Shown: positions 1 through 5,899, counted from the first letter of the stretch. The stretch is DNA of 5,899 nucleotides from a virus (IMGVR_UViG_2737471832_000006); one strand, 5' to 3'. Notes: generated by a model from the letters alone, not told the origin. A program made the numbers and translations.

Positions 1-177
1 GGGTCGGCGAACTGCTCCCCTGGCGCGTAGCACTGCCGACTGAATAACACATCCCCGTCAATACGGTTCTTGCTGCACGCTTACTTATTGATGTGGGTGT
101 TAAATTGACAAGGTACCTGCGACAGGAGATTTCTTGTTTATTTGTAATGCCACTGTTCTTTATCAGGAAGGTGATTA

Positions 178-447
178 ATGGAAAATCTACTTTTTGTGAT
201 GTGTTGGATTAAAGATCATCATGTGATGTCATTAACTTTTGGCGTCTTATCTGCAATTTTATGGATTAAATCTGCTACAGCAAAAGTTGAGTTAGGCAAA
301 AAAATTGTCATGGTTACGTATGAAGATCCCGAACTTAACGTGAATCTCCATGATTTCTTCGCCACTGCGCGGCTTCAATCTAAGTACAATTCATTTGCAG
401 CATTGTCTGCAGCAGCAACCGCGCTATTCCAGATTATTGGTTTGTAA
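178..447 (+). CDS. Hypothetical small protein (89 aa), possibly membrane-associated; function unknown
   Basis: ATG at 178 is preceded by a strong Shine-Dalgarno-like AGGAAGGTG (about 165-173). The ORF ends at TAA 445-447 and has two hydrophobic stretches (LTFGVLSAILWI and FAALSAAATALFQIIGL). It sits in the AT-rich block and is convergent with the toxin-antitoxin operon. No family recognised. Confidence 0.4.
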   Translation: MENLLFVMCWIKDHHVMSLTFGVLSAILWIKSATAKVELGKKIVMVTYEDPELNVNLHDFFATARLQSKYNSFAALSAAATALFQIIGL

Positions 448-584
448 TGCTTACCAGCCCCAAATTAATCAATACCCAGTGGTATTAGCAATGTCCATTT
501 CAAGTACATACGTTCTTAAGACATTTGGGCACTGTCATGTCTGTCGGGGAGGAGGTTAAAATCCTCTCGTGCAAAATTTCTTAG

Positions 585-947
585 CTAGAGAATACAAAGA
601 ACATCATCTGGTGTTAACACAGAGTCTTCTACGTACTCAGGGTGGTTACGTAATACATCTCTCTGATGTCTCAAGATCTGCGCTGGAATTTCTTGCTCAT
701 CCACAATTTTGGCAGTATCCAGCAAAATACTGCCACACCTTATTTCCAGCGAAACAAAGCGATTCCACTCTGGACCATTAGAACACAAAAGGTCAAACAA
801 AACCTCACCTGTAGCCTGTGAATTGCCCAGTATAACAGAAAGCCTCTTCTCGATTTCGTGAACTGAAGTCAAGGGGTTCTCGTAGCCAGTCGCCATAACG
901 ACGGCAATGAGAGCCCCTGAGACGTTAACACCTGTTATTTCAAACAA
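585..947 (-). CDS. rnlB: Putative antitoxin of an RnlA/RnlB-like (LsoA/LsoB-like) type II toxin-antitoxin pair
   Basis: 120-codon ORF immediately downstream of the 356-aa HEPN toxin candidate. Its TTG start (945-947) overlaps the toxin stop (940-942), and AAGGA lies 8 nt upstream. An alternative ATG at 894-896 would give 103 aa. Size and position match RnlB (about 123 aa, encoded downstream of rnlA) from memory; the sequence itself is not independently recognised. Confidence 0.45.
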   Translation of the reverse strand: MFEITGVNVSGALIAVVMATGYENPLTSVHEIEKRLSVILGNSQATGEVLFDLLCSNGPEWNRFVSLEIRCGSILLDTAKIVDEQEIPAQILRHQRDVLRNHPEYVEDSVLTPDDVLCIL

Positions 948-2010
948 TATACAAATCCTTAATAATTCCCCATGCCTGTCTGGCCTTAGTCATCAGTCGT
1001 GCCATGTCAGAAACCATACGGCTTGTGTCGACAACTATCTCCATATGAAACAGGCCATGACGTTCTCTGTTAAAGAAAGTATAGGCATCATTAATGGTCT
1101 TAACCTTAGCTGACGATAAATTGCATCCAAATTGTTGTTTCAGAATAAATTCACTCCCAATTTTATCAAAATAACGCCCGAAACCATCCTGCGTGATTGG
1201 CATGCCATATCGGTACATTGTTGATTTAAGTACTCCCTCAACTGAACGTAATTCAGGATACAACAACATACAGTAATCAGGTAAATCGGGGGCGGCGAGT
1301 TTAACACACAGCCCAGAAACGAGCAATTTTTCAACATTCTTATGCAATAGTGGGTACGCATCCCCCATTTCACACTCTAGATGTGAGCGAGCAACTTCTT
1401 TCTGAACTATATACGCTTTGCCATCGTCCTGACGAATGAGAACTTTTTCCAGTCCTTGTAAATCGAGTAGCTCTGACAAGTTGAATATAAACACTCTATA
1501 ACATGACAATGGACGCCCTTGTATTTGTAGTGTTCCATTTCTGTGATGCAGACTAACTGTCAACTCATCCTGAAATTCTGGCGAATGAATTTTCCACACC
1601 GTTGTATGAGTGTTCCGTAAGTATTCGTAAAATTGTATATGTGGCTGCTCTGCTGAGAGCTGAAGTACAGATAAAACGTTCGCTTCAACGAACCCTTGTA
1701 ACACCATATTTACCTGTTCAAATTCTGCAGGATTGATGGTTTCATAGAGATCATCAGCCAACTCTTTTCCAAGATTATGATTAGCTCCTGTTTGATACTG
1801 GACTGTAGACGTCCCTCCGTTATTATAGAAAATGTTAACAGTTGCCAAAGCTTCTCCTGGTTTAGCAAACACAACCCGAAGTCCTGCTCTTGCACCAGGC
1901 ATTGGTCCAATTGAATGGACGGAATAGTTTTTATTTTCAATAAATGCCCTAGACGTAGCCTCAATAGTTGTCCGATCTAAATTTAAATTAGTGTAGTTCC
2001 TGACTGTCAT
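940..2010 (-). CDS. rnlA: RnlA/LsoA-like HEPN endoribonuclease toxin (356 aa)
   Basis: ATG at 2008-2010 (MTVRNYTNLNL...); the 37 codons upstream in the ORF track are read-through of the leader. Stop at 940-942. The 356-aa length matches RnlA (about 357 aa). A HEPN Rx4-6H signature (R-E-R-H-G-L-F-H, residues about 315-322) sits near the C-terminus, where the RnlA catalytic motif is located. A small overlapping gene follows, as for rnlA-rnlB. The local sequence is AT-rich, typical of acquired defence cargo. Confidence 0.6.
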   Translation of the reverse strand: MTVRNYTNLNLDRTTIEATSRAFIENKNYSVHSIGPMPGARAGLRVVFAKPGEALATVNIFYNNGGTSTVQYQTGANHNLGKELADDLYETINPAEFEQVNMVLQGFVEANVLSVLQLSAEQPHIQFYEYLRNTHTTVWKIHSPEFQDELTVSLHHRNGTLQIQGRPLSCYRVFIFNLSELLDLQGLEKVLIRQDDGKAYIVQKEVARSHLECEMGDAYPLLHKNVEKLLVSGLCVKLAAPDLPDYCMLLYPELRSVEGVLKSTMYRYGMPITQDGFGRYFDKIGSEFILKQQFGCNLSSAKVKTINDAYTFFNRERHGLFHMEIVVDTSRMVSDMARLMTKARQAWGIIKDLYIV

Positions 2011-2069: not shown

Positions 2070-2432
2070 TCAGGCGCTGTATCCTGAAATCGGGTACCGA
2101 TAATATCCCTCCTGCAGCCATGTGTTGGTGTTAACAAGATACTGTGTATCAATTGAATCCGTCAGATTGCAAAAGTTGATGCCTCTTTCGCGCAGTTCCT
2201 CCACCAGCACGACAAGATGCCGCATACTGCGCCTCAGTCGGTCCAGTTTCCAGACCACCAGCGTGTCACCTGCCGATAATGTCCTGAGCAGCTTTTTCAG
2301 TCCTGGTCTGTCGGACTTTGTACCGCTTATCTTGTCTTCAAAAATCAGCTCGCATCCTGCACAGTTCAACGCATTACGTTGTAGATCGGTGTTCTGGTCA
2401 TTTGTTGATACGCGAACATAGCCAATAAGCAT
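2070..2432 (-). pseudogene. pin: Serine DNA invertase (Pin/Gin/Hin/Cin family), 3'-truncated; only the N-terminal catalytic core is retained
   Basis: Translation from ATG 2430-2432 (SD AGGAGGAG just upstream) reads MLIGYVRVSTNDQNTDLQRNAL...GDTLVVWKLDRLRRSMRHLVVLVEELRERGINFCNLTDSIDT, the hallmark N-terminus of Pin/Gin/Hin invertases including the catalytic Ser in the RVST motif. After about residue 97 (near 2141) the frame runs into unrelated sequence (QYLVNTNTWLQEGYYRYPISGYSA) and stops at 2070-2072. The conserved SSPMGRFFFH continuation, E-helix and C-terminal HTH domain are absent. Confidence 0.8.
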
Positions 2433-2461
2433 GATAGCTCCTCCTGACAAAAACAGGAACG

Positions 2462-2935
2462 ATGCCATTTGCGCGCTATTTCTGCATTTTCATAAACGTT
2501 CAATTGGGAGAAGCGGCAAAACGTAATGTCGGAACCGGTAATAATCAACTCCCAGACATGTCCGCATTTGGTATGTCGCGAAACGGACAAACTGCCTGGG
2601 ATATTCTCCCAAATGGTATGATTCGACAGGTTGGTACTGTGACACTGACGCCTGTTGGTAATTTCAACGCAATTACTCTTGGTGGAGTGCTGTACTACAC
2701 CCATTACTACAGGGTTAATTTCCCCAGACAATTCCCAAATGCACAAATAGCAACGCTGGCAACACTAGCGAGTTACAGCTTTTCGACCCAGTCATCAATG
2801 GCTGGGAAATCACTGGCAACGCATCGCGATACTGATTCTGGCACTGACGTATCAAGAACGCGATTCACTGTGTCGTATACGACACCCAATCTCGGCGAAA
2901 TTCCGACTTTGCATTTTGAAGCAATAGGATACTAA
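2462..2935 (+). CDS. Alternative tail-fibre C-terminal cassette (S'v / StfE-like), promoterless; expressible only after inversion fuses it to the constant part of stf
   Basis: The ORF ends ...LGEIPTLHFEAIGY, paralleling the Stf C-terminus ...DCCFIALGY. Its N-terminal part contains QLGEAAK...LPDMSAFG, paralleling Stf GLGETINK...ISDVSAFRNALQLG just after the predicted crossover site. It is in opposite orientation to stf/tfa and adjacent to the invertase, as in Mu G and e14 P segments. The ATG at 2462 has no convincing RBS, so the true coding part probably begins at the crossover site near 2500. Confidence 0.55.
   Translation: MPFARYFCIFINVQLGEAAKRNVGTGNNQLPDMSAFGMSRNGQTAWDILPNGMIRQVGTVTLTPVGNFNAITLGGVLYYTHYYRVNFPRQFPNAQIATLATLASYSFSTQSSMAGKSLATHRDTDSGTDVSRTRFTVSYTTPNLGEIPTLHFEAIGY
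2487..2512. repeat. Candidate degenerate invertase crossover site (partner of the site at 4021-4046), invertase-proximal end of the invertible segment
   Basis: ttttcataaacgttcaattgggagaa matches the reverse complement of 4021-4046 at 17 of 26 positions and encodes the shared LGE junction. The AAACC-NN-GGTTT core is degraded, consistent with a frozen switch. Confidence 0.3.
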
Positions 2936-2937
2936 AT

Positions 2938-3171
2938 ATGGAGAATATGTATTTCAGCCCAACGACCGTTGGTTTTTATGTTTCTGAACAAGAGCGACCT
3001 GATGATGCGGTTGAAGTCTCGCCAGAGGTGGAGGCATTTTTGAGGGAGTGTGTTATCTGGGGAGCGGATACATTTAACGTAGAGCGAGATGCAGCAACGG
3101 TGACATATCCAACAGAACTGCTTGAATATGTCACCACCTACAACGCCCCCGTTAAATATCCTGCGGATTGA
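2938..3171 (+). CDS. Short ORF (77 aa) in the position of the alternative tail fibre assembly gene (U' / TfaE-like); possibly a truncated or divergent chaperone
   Basis: ATG at 2938 lies 2 nt after the stop of the S'v cassette, with AGGA about 9 nt upstream. It is convergent with tfa, and the two 3' ends overlap by 20 bp (3152-3171). It lacks the C-terminal KYRVLL-RVD motif seen in the Tfa on the other strand, so the assignment is positional only. Confidence 0.35.
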   Translation: MENMYFSPTTVGFYVSEQERPDDAVEVSPEVEAFLRECVIWGADTFNVERDAATVTYPTELLEYVTTYNAPVKYPAD

Positions 3172-3562
3172 CAGGCCATACGGGTTTTGCTGTATCAACG
3201 CGCATCAGCAAGACCCGGTATTTTTTCCATTCAGATAACGCGGCGGTTTCTTCTGCCGTCGCGATTTCCGCATCAAAAGCATCCTGTCTCCAGGCTATTT
3301 CCTTATCAGCCATAGAACGCAATACCGTTCTTTTCTGTTCAGCCTGAATAATCTGTTGTTCAGCGGAGAGTGGCGGGATATCAATCCACGCAGGATTACC
3401 ATTTTTATCAGCCCCCAGCGTTTTGCCTTGTGGCGCTACGCCTGTGTAAATTGCCATTGTTTCATCATCAACATCAACGCCATTTTCAGGCCATGAACCG
3501 GCGCTGATATATACCTCTTTTAGTGCTTTCGGATAGAAAGAGCCTTTATAAAATTTATTCAT
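3152..3562 (-). CDS. tfa: Tail fibre assembly protein (Tfa, lambda Tfa / Mu U family), 136 aa
   Basis: ATG at 3560-3562 (MNKFYKGSFYP...) lies 2 nt after the stf stop. The C-terminus ...EWKKYRVLLMRVDTAKPVWPVNP matches the conserved Tfa C-terminal motif (lambda Tfa ...WKKYRVLLNRVDT...). The ORF track's earlier start at 3592 is a TTG inside the end of stf. Confidence 0.8.
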   Translation of the reverse strand: MNKFYKGSFYPKALKEVYISAGSWPENGVDVDDETMAIYTGVAPQGKTLGADKNGNPAWIDIPPLSAEQQIIQAEQKRTVLRSMADKEIAWRQDAFDAEIATAEETAALSEWKKYRVLLMRVDTAKPVWPVNPQDI

Positions 3563-3564
3563 TC

Positions 3565-5899
3565 TTAATACCCCAGCGCGATAAAACAACAATCTTCGGT
3601 GCCCTCTCCGGATGGCGACCAGTTCTGAATACTGATATGCGTTCTGCTGGCAATACGCACATTCATCGCGGCATTGTAGCCAGATGTTCCACGGTTTCCG
3701 GTCGCAAATAAGCCTGCATAGGGAAAAGCAAATGGTAAGGCATATCCAGCATCAGCTCCCTTTTGTGTTGCCACCGTTCCCCACTGCAACATAAGTTTCA
3801 CCGGGTTTCCTGTCGTCGCAATGCATGGAATGTAGATGTAGCCATTCCCTGACATCATTGACCTGAAGCTGTCTAAACCCAGTAACTTCGAGGCATTATC
3901 TGCTCCAACATCTCGTGTTGCGGCGGTCCCTAACTGGAGCGCATTTCGGAAGGCTGATACATCAGAAATATCAGCTCCATTAGCCGATTTCTGCATAGCT
4001 CCGGAGGCTTTATTTATCGTTTCGCCCAAACCAAGGTATGCGAGAAGACCAGCTACATCCTTTCCACTCAAATTAGTCAGCGTATTGTCCAGCGGTTGTT
4101 TGCCCGCCAGTGCGCTCTGTACTTCGCTTTTGCTGTAGGCATCCAGATCTTTAGGCGTAAGCGTAATATCCTTCGTGCCGTCAAACGGAACGCCGTTGAT
4201 ATTCCGTGCAGTCTGTAGTTTTGTGGCAGTTGCAGCATTACCAGTGGTGTTCTGATTACCCGTAGTGTTTACACCTGGAAGGTTAATATTTGCAGAACCG
4301 TCGAAAACAACTCCACCGATAGATCTTGCCGTCTGCAATTTCGTGGCTGTACTTGCATTACCATTCAATGAACCAGTTAATCCACCTGTAACAGACAACG
4401 GACCTGAAACTGTTCCTCCGGTTGTTGGCAGTGCTCCAATATCTAACGGCGTCGGTTTCTGATGTGTGCTATACATCGTATAAACAACACCATAGGTAAC
4501 GCTGGAAGGCTTACTCGCTGAATATGTTGGCGAGGTATAAACAGAAACTGACGCATTTGCAGTACAATCCCAATGGATATTTACACTCGTCGCATAATTG
4601 CCAATCTCAACGTAAATATCATATGTATCGCCGGATGTGTTGATCCAGGCGAAATTCGTTAATCCGACGGCTGTACGCTTCCACAAAGCCCCGGTAATTC
4701 CTTTGGGGTTTCCATTGCCTGCTCGTAGAACCAGTTCTGAAATGCCTGCCTGATGTGGGGAACCGACGTTGTAACCAGCGCCACCAATCAATGCGATGTA
4801 AACGATGGAACTCGCCTGTGGCATGGTTACCGTTGCTAATTTGAACCAACCAGCACCACCGCTGAATGACATTGTTGTTGAGTTAAGCGTACCAATATCT
4901 TTCGGCGTCAGTGTTATATCCGCTGAAAGCGCCTTACCATTCACCTTACGGGCAGAAGGTACCCGACCATTCGCATTATCATTAGCTGCTTTCACTGCTT
5001 TCGGTGTCGCGGCAAGCGTTTCAGATGCGCTGTTGGTTGCACTACTGAGCTGGACAATTCCTTTTTGTGCTGTCGTAGCGTCCTGTGCGGTGTATTTCCC
5101 GTTAGCCAGGTCATACGCGGCCTTAACGGCTTTTGGCGTTGCCGCCTGTGACTCGGAAGTGCTGTTGGTCGCACTGCTGAGCTGTACTACCCCCTTTTTC
5201 GTCGTGCTCGCATCCTCAAGCGCCACAGCGGATGCAATATCCTCTGCCCGTTTTGCTGCTGTCTCGGCGCGCGTTGCCGCGGATTCCGCCGTACTTTTGC
5301 TCTGAGCTGCCGCCGTCGCACTGCCAGCTGCCTCTGTCGCCTTCGTGGATGCCGTCGTGGCGCTGCCCTTCGCTGCTGACGCTTGTCTGGTCGCCTCATC
5401 TTTTGAAGCAGACGCCGATGATGCCGATGACGCCGCCGAACTGGCGGACGATGCGGCAGCCGTTTTTGAGGATTCTGCACGGGTTTCCGACGCTTTCGCG
5501 TTCGTTTCGGATGTCTTCGCTGCGGAAGCTGACCTCGCTGCTGCGCTGGCCTGTTCAGTGGCTTCGCCAGCCTTCGTTGTGGCTGTTGAAGCAGACGATG
5601 CGGCACTTTCTGCCGACTTTCCGGCAGCGGTGGCACTGGCTGAGGCCTGCCCGGCACTTGTTGATGCGGCACTGGCAGATGATGCAGCCGCTGTTTTTGA
5701 GCCTGCCGCAGCTGAGGCACTCTGTCCCGCTGCCGTTTCAGAAGACCTGGCGTTCGTCTCGGACGTTTTTGCCGCCTTCGCGGAATTTCCTGCCGCCGTT
5801 GCCGAGGAAGCGGCACTACTGGCGCTTGATGATGCGTTCGTTTCTGATGATTTCGCTGCCTCTTTTGAGGCCGCCGCATCCCGGGCTGAGGTGGCAGCT
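3565..5899 (-). CDS. stf: Side tail fibre protein (Stf-like), 5'-partial; gene continues beyond the window end
   Basis: This minus-strand frame is open from the window edge to the stop at 3565-3567; I checked every codon from 5227 to 5899 and found no stop. The ORF track's start at 5226 is only an internal GTG. The translation of 5227-5899 is Ala/Ser/Thr/Lys/Glu-rich with ...AAKTSETNAKASE...-type repeats typical of the Stf N-terminal shaft. It is followed by the duplicated KG(V/I)VQLSSATNS-SE--AATPKAVKAA motif found in lambda Stf / Mu S / P2 H fibres, then a Gly/Thr/Asn-rich distal region ending ...IALGY. The 230-aa Arg-rich ORF (5187-5879) and the 166-aa plus-strand ORF (4805-5305) are alternative-frame artefacts of this gene. 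Confidence 0.9.
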   Translation of the reverse strand, partial: AATSARDAAASKEAAKSSETNASSSASSAASSATAAGNSAKAAKTSETNARSSETAAGQSASAAAGSKTAAASSASAASTSAGQASASATAAGKSAESAASSASTATTKAGEATEQASAAARSASAAKTSETNAKASETRAESSKTAAASSASSAASSASSASASKDEATRQASAAKGSATTASTKATEAAGSATAAAQSKSTAESAATRAETAAKRAEDIASAVALEDASTTKKGVVQLSSATNSTSESQAATPKAVKAAYDLANGKYTAQDATTAQKGIVQLSSATNSASETLAATPKAVKAANDNANGRVPSARKVNGKALSADITLTPKDIGTLNSTTMSFSGGAGWFKLATVTMPQASSIVYIALIGGAGYNVGSPHQAGISELVLRAGNGNPKGITGALWKRTAVGLTNFAWINTSGDTYDIYVEIGNYATSVNIHWDCTANASVSVYTSPTYSASKPSSVTYGVVYTMYSTHQKPTPLDIGALPTTGGTVSGPLSVTGGLTGSLNGNASTATKLQTARSIGGVVFDGSANINLPGVNTTGNQNTTGNAATATKLQTARNINGVPFDGTKDITLTPKDLDAYSKSEVQSALAGKQPLDNTLTNLSGKDVAGLLAYLGLGETINKASGAMQKSANGADISDVSAFRNALQLGTAATRDVGADNASKLLGLDSFRSMMSGNGYIYIPCIATTGNPVKLMLQWGTVATQKGADAGYALPFAFPYAGLFATGNRGTSGYNAAMNVRIASRTHISIQNWSPSGEGTEDCCFIALGY
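4021..4046. repeat. Invertase crossover site (hix/gix/pix-like 26-bp imperfect palindrome) inside stf at the constant/variable junction
   Basis: TTCGCCCAAACC-AA-GGTATGCGAGAA has the AAACC-NN-GGT(T/A)T core of Hin/Gin/Pin recombination sites (compare hix TTCTTGAAAACCAAGGTTTTTGATAA, recalled from memory). The two half-sites are 9 of 12 symmetric. On the coding strand it encodes LAYLGLGE, the point after which Stf and the S'v cassette diverge. Confidence 0.5.

Follow-up and report, generated by a model that had tools for sequence, protein, structure and literature searches.

The stretch analysed here, 5,899 nucleotides of DNA from the virus IMGVR_UViG_2737471832_000006 and referred to throughout as the window, carries at positions 178–447 of its plus strand an open reading frame (ORF) that opens with ATG and encodes 89 amino acids (aa) followed by a stop codon. 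The frame, here ORF89, corresponds to the RefSeq Escherichia coli entry WP_000429347.1, a 'hypothetical protein', and its product is a member of PHROG 14357. A Shine-Dalgarno region, AGGAAGGTGAT, occupies positions 165–175 of the same strand, with AGGAAGGTG representing positions 165–173. Within this region AGGTGAT (169–175) provides seven consecutive bases matching the complement of the anti-Shine-Dalgarno sequence at the 3' end of the 16S rRNA, and the AGG core is positioned 6 nt 5' of the ATG, in keeping with the strong ribosome-binding site described in an earlier note on this DNA. Downstream lie the toxin-antitoxin genes rnlB (585–947) and rnlA (940–2010), an operon on the minus strand, such that the stops of ORF89 (447) and rnlB (585) are convergent and 137 bp apart, an arrangement that the earlier note had also read correctly. 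Comparative analysis of the locus identifies ORF89 as an accessory gene that moves horizontally, is carried mainly by temperate phages and encodes a conserved helical-hairpin protein.

The length of 89 codons is insignificant by itself, as real genes of the window enclose ORFs of 99 and 126 aa that are clearly spurious. ORF89 was instead judged to be real on the basis of its conservation, both in codon length and in the purifying selection acting on it. Among 5.8 billion proteins, a word-indexed search recovered approximately 20 clusters of homologues, mostly from Enterobacterales (E. coli, Pantoea, Erwinia and Atlantibacter), which are 69–93% identical to the ORF89 protein and whose intact copies are almost all exactly 89 aa long. 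Nei-Gojobori counts gave a ratio of nonsynonymous to synonymous substitution (dN/dS) of 0.06–0.12 for seven of eight close copies and of 0.32 for the remaining one, L021. In the three copies that are most distant, the same counts gave a proportion of nonsynonymous differences (pN) of 0.11–0.21 against saturated synonymous sites (pS 0.79–0.95). In alignments, a Shine-Dalgarno sequence of the AAGG type is kept across all clades 6–9 nt 5' of the start codon. ORF89 is therefore a real gene under strong purifying selection, and the data support a well-translated small gene predicted to encode two hydrophobic helices.

The earlier note had reasoned that an absence of conservation in related loci would mark the ORF as spurious; conservation was found, in selection and in the retention of all 89 codons. 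A spurious frame that owed its conservation to a non-coding element would fit with the lack of a promoter detected by scan. Such an element would not preserve the frame and its 89-codon length despite saturated synonymous sites, nor hold dN/dS at 0.06–0.12, and the conserved Shine-Dalgarno sequence and the confident structural model described below are equally at odds with it. The selection counts refute this explanation for practical purposes and leave it next to no probability. Variants with a frameshift or deletion do exist among the homologues (P0003, P0016 and P0020). In P0003, a 97-aa protein of E. coli present on 13 contigs, the C terminus after residue 75 is that of an overlapping +1-frame ORF (350–559; window ~400–559), which is consistent with a short deletion that removed the second hydrophobic helix and gives it the appearance of a decaying copy.

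The ORF89 protein matched the profile phrog_14357 with an E value of 4e-33, residues 1–88 aligning to profile positions 1–89 of 90, and the same profile was matched by 31 of 31 diverse relatives. Of 1.84 billion cluster representatives searched exhaustively with a profile, 33 matched at E <= 0.001. The family spans Proteobacteria, with lengths of 75–113 aa when two repetitive proteins of ~1,700 aa and some truncated copies are set aside. Profile-to-profile alignment of the close and distant clades in hhalign gave a probability of 98.7% (E 3e-16), and two motifs run through the family, G..SA.LW.(K/R)SA..(K/R)V and T...Q.KWN..AA..AA..A..Q. Members are labelled 'hypothetical' in every naming source except for one weak match labelled DUF849, and PHROG 14357 itself carries no annotation, therefore membership is uninformative with regard to function. 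Searches with the ORF89 protein gave no match in Pfam, NCBIfam, PADLOC or the PDB, and a literature search found no paper that names WP_000429347.1 or PHROG 14357. The statement in the earlier note that no family could be recognised consequently holds for Pfam, NCBIfam and PADLOC and fails for PHROGs, in the same way that the label 'orphan' suits a stand-alone gene and does not suit one with relatives.

To describe the fold of the protein, an AlphaFold2 model was built with a 31-sequence alignment (predicted local distance difference test score 93, predicted template modelling score 0.75). The model is a helical hairpin consisting of a short N-terminal helix (residues 2–13) and two long helices (16–34 and 57–88) that carry the hydrophobic segments, connected by a loop with a short beta pair. 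Helix 2 (residues 16–34; window 223–279, plus strand) is the predicted first transmembrane segment (TM1) and bears the motif G..SA.LW.(K/R)SA, in which W29 is invariant. The loop (residues 35–70; 280–387, plus strand) has K/R-rich ends, is predicted to be cytoplasmic and closes with the motif T...Q.K(W/Y)N (T63, Q67 and N71). The second hydrophobic helix (residues 71–89; 388–444, plus strand), assigned from hydropathy, conservation and the model, is rich in Ala and Ser (AA..AA..A..Q) and extends to the C terminus. The two hydrophobic segments noticed previously are thus present, at moderate hydropathy only, with Kyte-Doolittle 19-residue means of 1.48 (residues 16–34) and 1.43 (71–89) and family means of 1.56 and 1.34. 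A structure-based search, which the earlier note had proposed as a check, was run and returned generic helical hairpins only.

Charged residues are distributed asymmetrically about these helices. Counted across the family, 72 K/R face 13 D/E just after TM1 and 55 face 5 just before the second transmembrane segment, bringing the loop side overall to 127 K/R versus 18 D/E, and the termini are short and uncharged. Basic loops lie on the cytoplasmic side of membranes under the positive-inside rule, and because of the K/R excess on the loop side a cytoplasmic loop and periplasmic ends are predicted. On this model the ORF89 protein would be an inner-membrane hairpin with both ends in the periplasm. 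A lipoprotein or signal peptide was also considered and rejected, given that the protein lacks a lipobox, begins with an acidic N terminus and has a Cys9 that is not conserved.

When window positions 1–900 were compared by blastn with the fetched loci, positions 95–496 recurred in unrelated contexts at 84–89% identity with unrelated DNA beyond, and in some loci the match was narrower (95–447 or 97–481). ORF89 thus moves as a unit of ~400 bp, in which the 270-bp ORF is preceded by ~83 bp and followed by ~49 bp of flanking DNA on the plus strand. The 5' flank is 55–60% identical to that of the copies L002, L005 and L016, whose synonymous sites are saturated, and includes a conserved non-coding block, AGGTACCTGCGACAGGAGATTTCTTGTTTATTTGTAATGCCAC (111–153, plus strand), that could be an operator, a non-canonical promoter or a leader. 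Within this block an imperfect dyad read from the alignments, ACAGGA-GATT-TCTTGT (122–137, plus strand), is perfect in the Pantoea-type copy L012 (ACAAGA-GATT-TCTTGT) and may be operator-like. The conserved 3' flank contains a hairpin, AATACC-CAGT-GGTATT (471–486, plus strand), that is kept in the Pantoea-type copies and forms in the minimum-free-energy fold. Lacking a U-run, it does not qualify as a canonical terminator, and a terminator scan gave no match there.

No Rfam model matched window positions 1–1000. RNAalifold gave the 5' flank a weak fold (-4.2 kcal/mol) with a compensatory change in 1 of 13 pairs, and for this reason no RNA element is claimed there; the fold of the 3' intergenic region was no better than that of shuffled sequences (z -0.72). 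A tRNA or attachment site (att) fragment in the upstream flank was rejected on inspection. Terminal inverted repeats like those of miniature inverted-repeat transposable elements were likewise rejected, as the arms are each palindromic and neither the E. coli nor the prophage copies have them.

In complete genomes of E. coli the cassette is present in 74 of 5,426, as a single copy of at least 99% identity. In KSC64, the only genome annotated throughout, it is the final gene of a lambdoid prophage and lies ~300 bp downstream of ssrA; beyond it come, in order, rnlB-rnlA, a truncated invertase gene, tail-fibre assembly, tail fibre, lom and J. Other E. coli matches have the same rnlB and tail-fibre neighbours, and the copies L001 and L033 sit at the ssrA-proximal end adjoining tail fibre genes. 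The window copy occupies the att-proximal b-region of the prophage. GC content is 38–41% over positions 85–2100 (38% over the ORF) compared with 45–50% on the tail-fibre side.

The two neighbouring genes contain the Pfam domains RnlB_antitoxin and RnlA, and their products matched the solved K-12 proteins in the PDB (RnlA to 4i8o, E 8e-167; RnlB to 6y2p_C, E 4e-51), so that what had been called an RnlAB-like pair consists of true RnlA and RnlB homologues. ORF89 resembles RnlA-RnlB (RNase LS) of the E. coli K-12 element CP4-57 in being its physical neighbour here and in lying, like it, at an ssrA-linked prophage, and differs in standing outside the operon and in being absent from K-type loci. 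Joint action with the pair had been raised as a possibility, and ORF89 could in principle be a third component or modulator of RnlA-RnlB that senses at the membrane, adds immunity or acts as a second toxin. In E. coli the same ~73 genomes do carry both the cassette and this rnlAB allele, as a contiguous low-GC block. This linkage was counted as a single acquisition because it consists of one block at >=99% identity. Among the 436 rnlAB-bearing E. coli genomes, 363 lack the cassette anywhere, these being of the experimentally studied K-12 type at ~73% nucleotide identity. In eight genomes nothing but the last 159 bp of the cassette is left, and in L073, the only one of the eight inspected, an IS1 element abuts the stump with rnlA and rnlB annotated as intact.

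Outside E. coli, synteny was examined in more than 12 independent contexts and no RnlA or RnlB neighbour was found at any copy. In addition, ORF89 is convergent with the operon rather than part of it and the limits of the cassette (95–496) exclude rnlB. ORF89 is therefore genetically independent of RnlAB, and the comparative data favour the other possibility raised in the earlier note, that it acts on its own. A role as a component of RnlAB is largely refuted by this comparison and retains very little probability. To our knowledge RnlAB is a two-gene system with no membrane partner. ORF89 should accordingly not be annotated as part of it, and the pair in the window is an ordinary two-gene module.

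The locus L073 (3248–4159) belongs to E. coli Res13-Lact-PEB01-20 and has lost the first ~160 bp of the ORF to IS1, by which ORF89 is dispensable. The ORF89-rnlBA-invertase remnant at this locus lies in a different, decayed prophage (yfdQ/R/T side), adjoining a retron-type reverse transcriptase and an integrase.

In lambdoid prophages of Pantoea-like bacteria (L002, L005 and L016) the gene is located between the lysis cassette and terminase on the opposite strand, and the distant member L023 occupies the same slot, between Rz/lysis genes and terminase and again on the opposite strand. Two further distant members (L022 and L028) lie in integrase-proximal early regions, and genes for DNA methylases, integrases, NA37 and DUF2303 are among the neighbours at another 17 loci of metagenomic or viral origin. 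Genes of the family are usually on the strand opposite to the flanking phage operons. These prophage accessory positions bear out the placing of the ORF among prophage accessory or defence cargo in the earlier note. In L005 the accessory slot around the lysis genes is dense with cargo, a PP2C phosphatase and a Ser/Thr kinase standing beside the family member with HicA/HicB nearby (8343–9844; 11360–12022).

The adjacency to Rz, endolysin and holin genes in L002, L005, L016 and L023, together with the form of a small two-helix membrane protein, would suit an accessory of lysis timing that is holin- or antiholin-like. In all four prophages, however, the gene runs opposite to the late operon of a phage that has its own holin. 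Moreover, the protein stops at the end of its second hydrophobic helix and lacks a charged tail, and the window copy is at the tail-fibre/att end, far from the lysis genes. The Rz-terminase slot shared by these four prophages also corresponds to the position of bor in lambda, a moron expressed in the lysogen. A lysis accessory thus has only a slim chance of being correct, and the data largely exclude it along with an RnlAB component and a spurious ORF.

The comparison with bor extends to moron genes in general (lambda bor, HK97 gp15; PMC3594210). Like them, ORF89 is small and stand-alone, lies between conserved phage modules, is opposite in strand to its neighbours (in the window, L002, L005, L016 and L023) and is low in GC. 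Related prophages differ in whether they carry it, as its frequency in E. coli illustrates, and its placement varies between the att/tail-fibre end in E. coli and the lysis-terminase region in L002, L005 and L016. In position, polymorphism, orientation and composition ORF89 therefore matches a moron. It differs in that the promoter and terminator of their own that define morons were undetected by scan for ORF89, and from the lipoprotein bor and from HK97 gp15 in that there is no sequence similarity and ORF89 has no lipobox.

Close copies of the gene also occur alone between housekeeping genes in chromosomes of Pantoea, Erwinia, Enterobacter and Pseudescherichia (Erwiniaceae and Enterobacteriaceae), and one such solitary copy, L018, adjoins a truncated integrase. 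The persistence of these copies under purifying selection, and conserved polar residues at the membrane interface that suit docking to a partner, would be expected of a lysogenic-conversion factor unrelated to phages, in which the protein would be small, sit in the inner membrane and modulate a transporter, a sensor or an envelope function of the host, much as the small proteins AcrZ and MgtS do. No host neighbour or partner gene is conserved across the contexts, however, and the family is found mostly in prophage accessory regions, leaving a conversion factor of this kind an improbable explanation.

The solitary copies, of which L018 lies beside an integrase remnant, and the non-coding 5' and 3' flanks that are conserved and travel with the ORF also bear on an addiction module in the style of type I systems. 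Here a small hydrophobic toxin would be held in check by an antisense RNA from the conserved flanks, which would explain the solitary remnants. The usual type I toxins are shorter than 60 aa and have one helix, a range that the 89 aa and two long helices of the ORF89 protein fall outside. Searches of the flanks gave no Rfam match, no antisense promoter by scan and no RNA structure supported by covariation. Loss without obvious penalty, as seen in the IS1-cut L073 copy and in the frameshifted or deletion variants P0003, P0016 and P0020, is likewise contrary to addiction, to which we assign little probability.

The surroundings of the solitary Pantoea-type copies show a further feature. A 23-nt 'inverted repeat' around the L013 copy was found to consist of arms that are each a palindrome, GTCCGCT...AGCGGAC, on both sides of the gene. 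These palindromes bracket the copy at L013 521–543 and 992–1014, with similar sequences in L012, L008 and L009, and since they look like host repetitive extragenic palindromic (REP) elements they account for the apparent inverted repeats of the solitary copies. Neighbouring strains diverge exactly at the REP-like elements (L008 versus L009; L013 versus L014), which suggests REP-associated rearrangement or insertion beside the cassette. A 92%-identical copy of the otherwise enterobacterial clade was present at 4001–4270 of L019 (CP093281.1), the 952-kb plasmid p1 of 'Pseudomonas silvicola'; this suggests either a recent horizontal transfer or a wrong taxonomic label.

Neighbours of a defence type recur beside members of the family and differ each time, being RnlAB in the window, PP2C with a kinase and HicAB in L005, putAbiC in L028 and Mrr_cat in L025. 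A distant member of 90 aa, P0063, is followed immediately on its own strand by TIR_2 and ThsB_TIR genes in three contigs (L036 6001–7303; L037 5473–6775; L038 1899–3201), and PADLOC identified these TIR neighbours as ThsB-like. The set is contained in a larger cluster with a sigma-54 activator and a SEC-C protein, and may represent an undescribed Thoeris-like arrangement with a minimal protein of two transmembrane helices.

The association of P0063 with TIR genes, and of a second member with the putAbiC gene that it follows in L028, raises the question of whether the ORF89 protein breaches the membrane when triggered, as an effector or toxin of the abortive-infection type, with a hairpin that, instead of blocking phage entry, would oligomerise into a pore or depolarise the membrane once activated. 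Thoeris and CBASS often use small effectors with multiple transmembrane helices, such as DUF2270/ThsF and SLATT/ThsH (bioRxiv 10.64898/2025.12.03.692087). The ORF89 protein shares with these a predicted two-helix membrane form, and one distant subclade of its family stands beside ThsB-like TIR genes. Its helix faces of small residues and Gln/Asn would suit oligomerisation. It is, however, much smaller, and its loop of ~35 aa is very small for a ligand sensor. A signal-generating partner is lacking for the window copy and for most family members, with no TIR, CD-NTase or cyclase gene in the window or at close homologues. The 31 family members gave no match to Pfam SLATT, DUF4231 or DUF2270 at E values up to 10, nor to the PADLOC effector models at E values up to 1. 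Finally, a toxin translated constitutively from a strong Shine-Dalgarno sequence with no antitoxin would be hard to maintain. A triggered effector is for these reasons unlikely for ORF89 itself.

Taken as a whole, the evidence is best accommodated by ORF89 being an autonomous accessory gene of the moron type in temperate phages, the product of which is made in the lysogen and provides protection at the membrane against other phages. We assign this whole statement a probability of roughly 0.5, its structural and genetic core being far more certain than the role in phage exclusion. The hairpin would insert in the inner membrane with both ends periplasmic and the basic ~35-aa loop in the cytoplasm. 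There it would probably oligomerise, or dock on a host membrane protein, through its Ala/Ser/Gly and Gln/Asn faces, with the conserved residues W29, Q67, N71 and Q85 predicted to take part in helix-helix contacts. The protection conferred on the lysogen could be superinfection exclusion, in which DNA entry is blocked, or a related membrane-acting defence. The candidate roles put forward in the earlier note, namely superinfection exclusion, toxin or immunity component and anti-defence protein, are likewise conjectural.

The concept of morons, and of small prophage membrane proteins as exclusion factors (HK97 gp15 and P22 SieA), is established (PMC3594210, PMC10883804, PMC11436027), and entry of DNA from other phages is typically blocked by small helical inner-membrane proteins that prophages encode (PMC10883804, PMC11436027), which serve here as the analogy for mechanism. 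The ORF89 protein resembles P22 SieA, T4 Imm and HK97 gp15 as a prophage-borne small helical protein of predicted inner-membrane location, a likeness of kind only. It differs from all three in showing no detectable homology, the unannotated phrog_14357 being the only profile matched, with no Pfam family.

Several observations weigh against a protective role made in the lysogen. A tblastn search of 50,697 phage genomes, with the ORF89 protein and a 43%-identical relative as queries, returned no match. Scans for sigma-70 promoter and intrinsic terminator consensus found none beside the gene in the window, L002, L005, L012 or L016, and because neither was found in these five copies independent transcription in the lysogen is left unsupported. 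The hydrophobic segments are marginal, therefore membrane insertion is predicted and not certain. Defence neighbours are common in prophage accessory regions anyway, and a role in host physiology would explain the solitary chromosomal copies equally well. No experiment or homology links the PHROG 14357 family to a function, on which PADLOC, Pfam and NCBIfam are silent.

A more far-reaching proposal, which we regard as doubtful, is that PHROG 14357 represents a minimal and unrecognised two-helix membrane module of phage-bacterium conflict. Members standing alone, such as ORF89, would then act as a novel class of exclusion or defence proteins, one subclade would have been recruited by ThsB-like TIR proteins as a novel Thoeris-like membrane effector, and the conserved 5' block with its dyad would serve as a shared regulatory switch.

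The remaining features of the window lie outside the cassette. Positions 1–84 are the end of an IS66-family insertion sequence (IS) that is ISEc22-like, given that annotated ISEc22 transposase ends match window positions 1–90 in ~4,600 places. The element is inserted 93 bp upstream of the ORF89 ATG, just outside the cassette, and could have altered transcription into ORF89. In the complete E. coli genomes listed as matching window positions 1–700, the match begins at position 85 and the IS junction is present in none. On the other side of rnlBA, a truncated serine invertase of the Pin/Gin/Hin type (2070–2468, minus strand) is represented by a 132-aa ORF with the resolvase N-terminal domain only, and is annotated as a pseudogene in relatives. 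The 3' part of the invertase gene ends where the low-GC ORF89-rnlBA block starts (~2100), which suggests that insertion of the block or an adjacent deletion destroyed the invertase. Positions 2462–3592 contain remnants of an invertible tail-fibre segment, comprising a gp53-like C-terminal tail-fibre piece (2462–2935, plus strand) and a 77-aa ORF (2938–3171, plus strand). Facing these remnants are the active tail-fibre assembly gene (3152–3592, minus strand) and the tail-fibre gene (from 3565, minus strand). Because the invertase is truncated, host-range switching is probably frozen.

ORF89 is of a familiar kind, the small membrane-protein cargo of prophages, and belongs to an uncharacterised family. 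The cassette occurs in clinically relevant E. coli, JJ1886 and JJ1887 included, as well as in plant-associated Erwiniaceae, and would be easy to clone and test because it amounts to only ~400 bp including its control region. The TIR-linked subclade (L036–L038) offers a concrete way into the question of a membrane effector. If the protective role proposed here is true, the protections encoded by prophages would come to include a very small membrane factor that a single gene provides.

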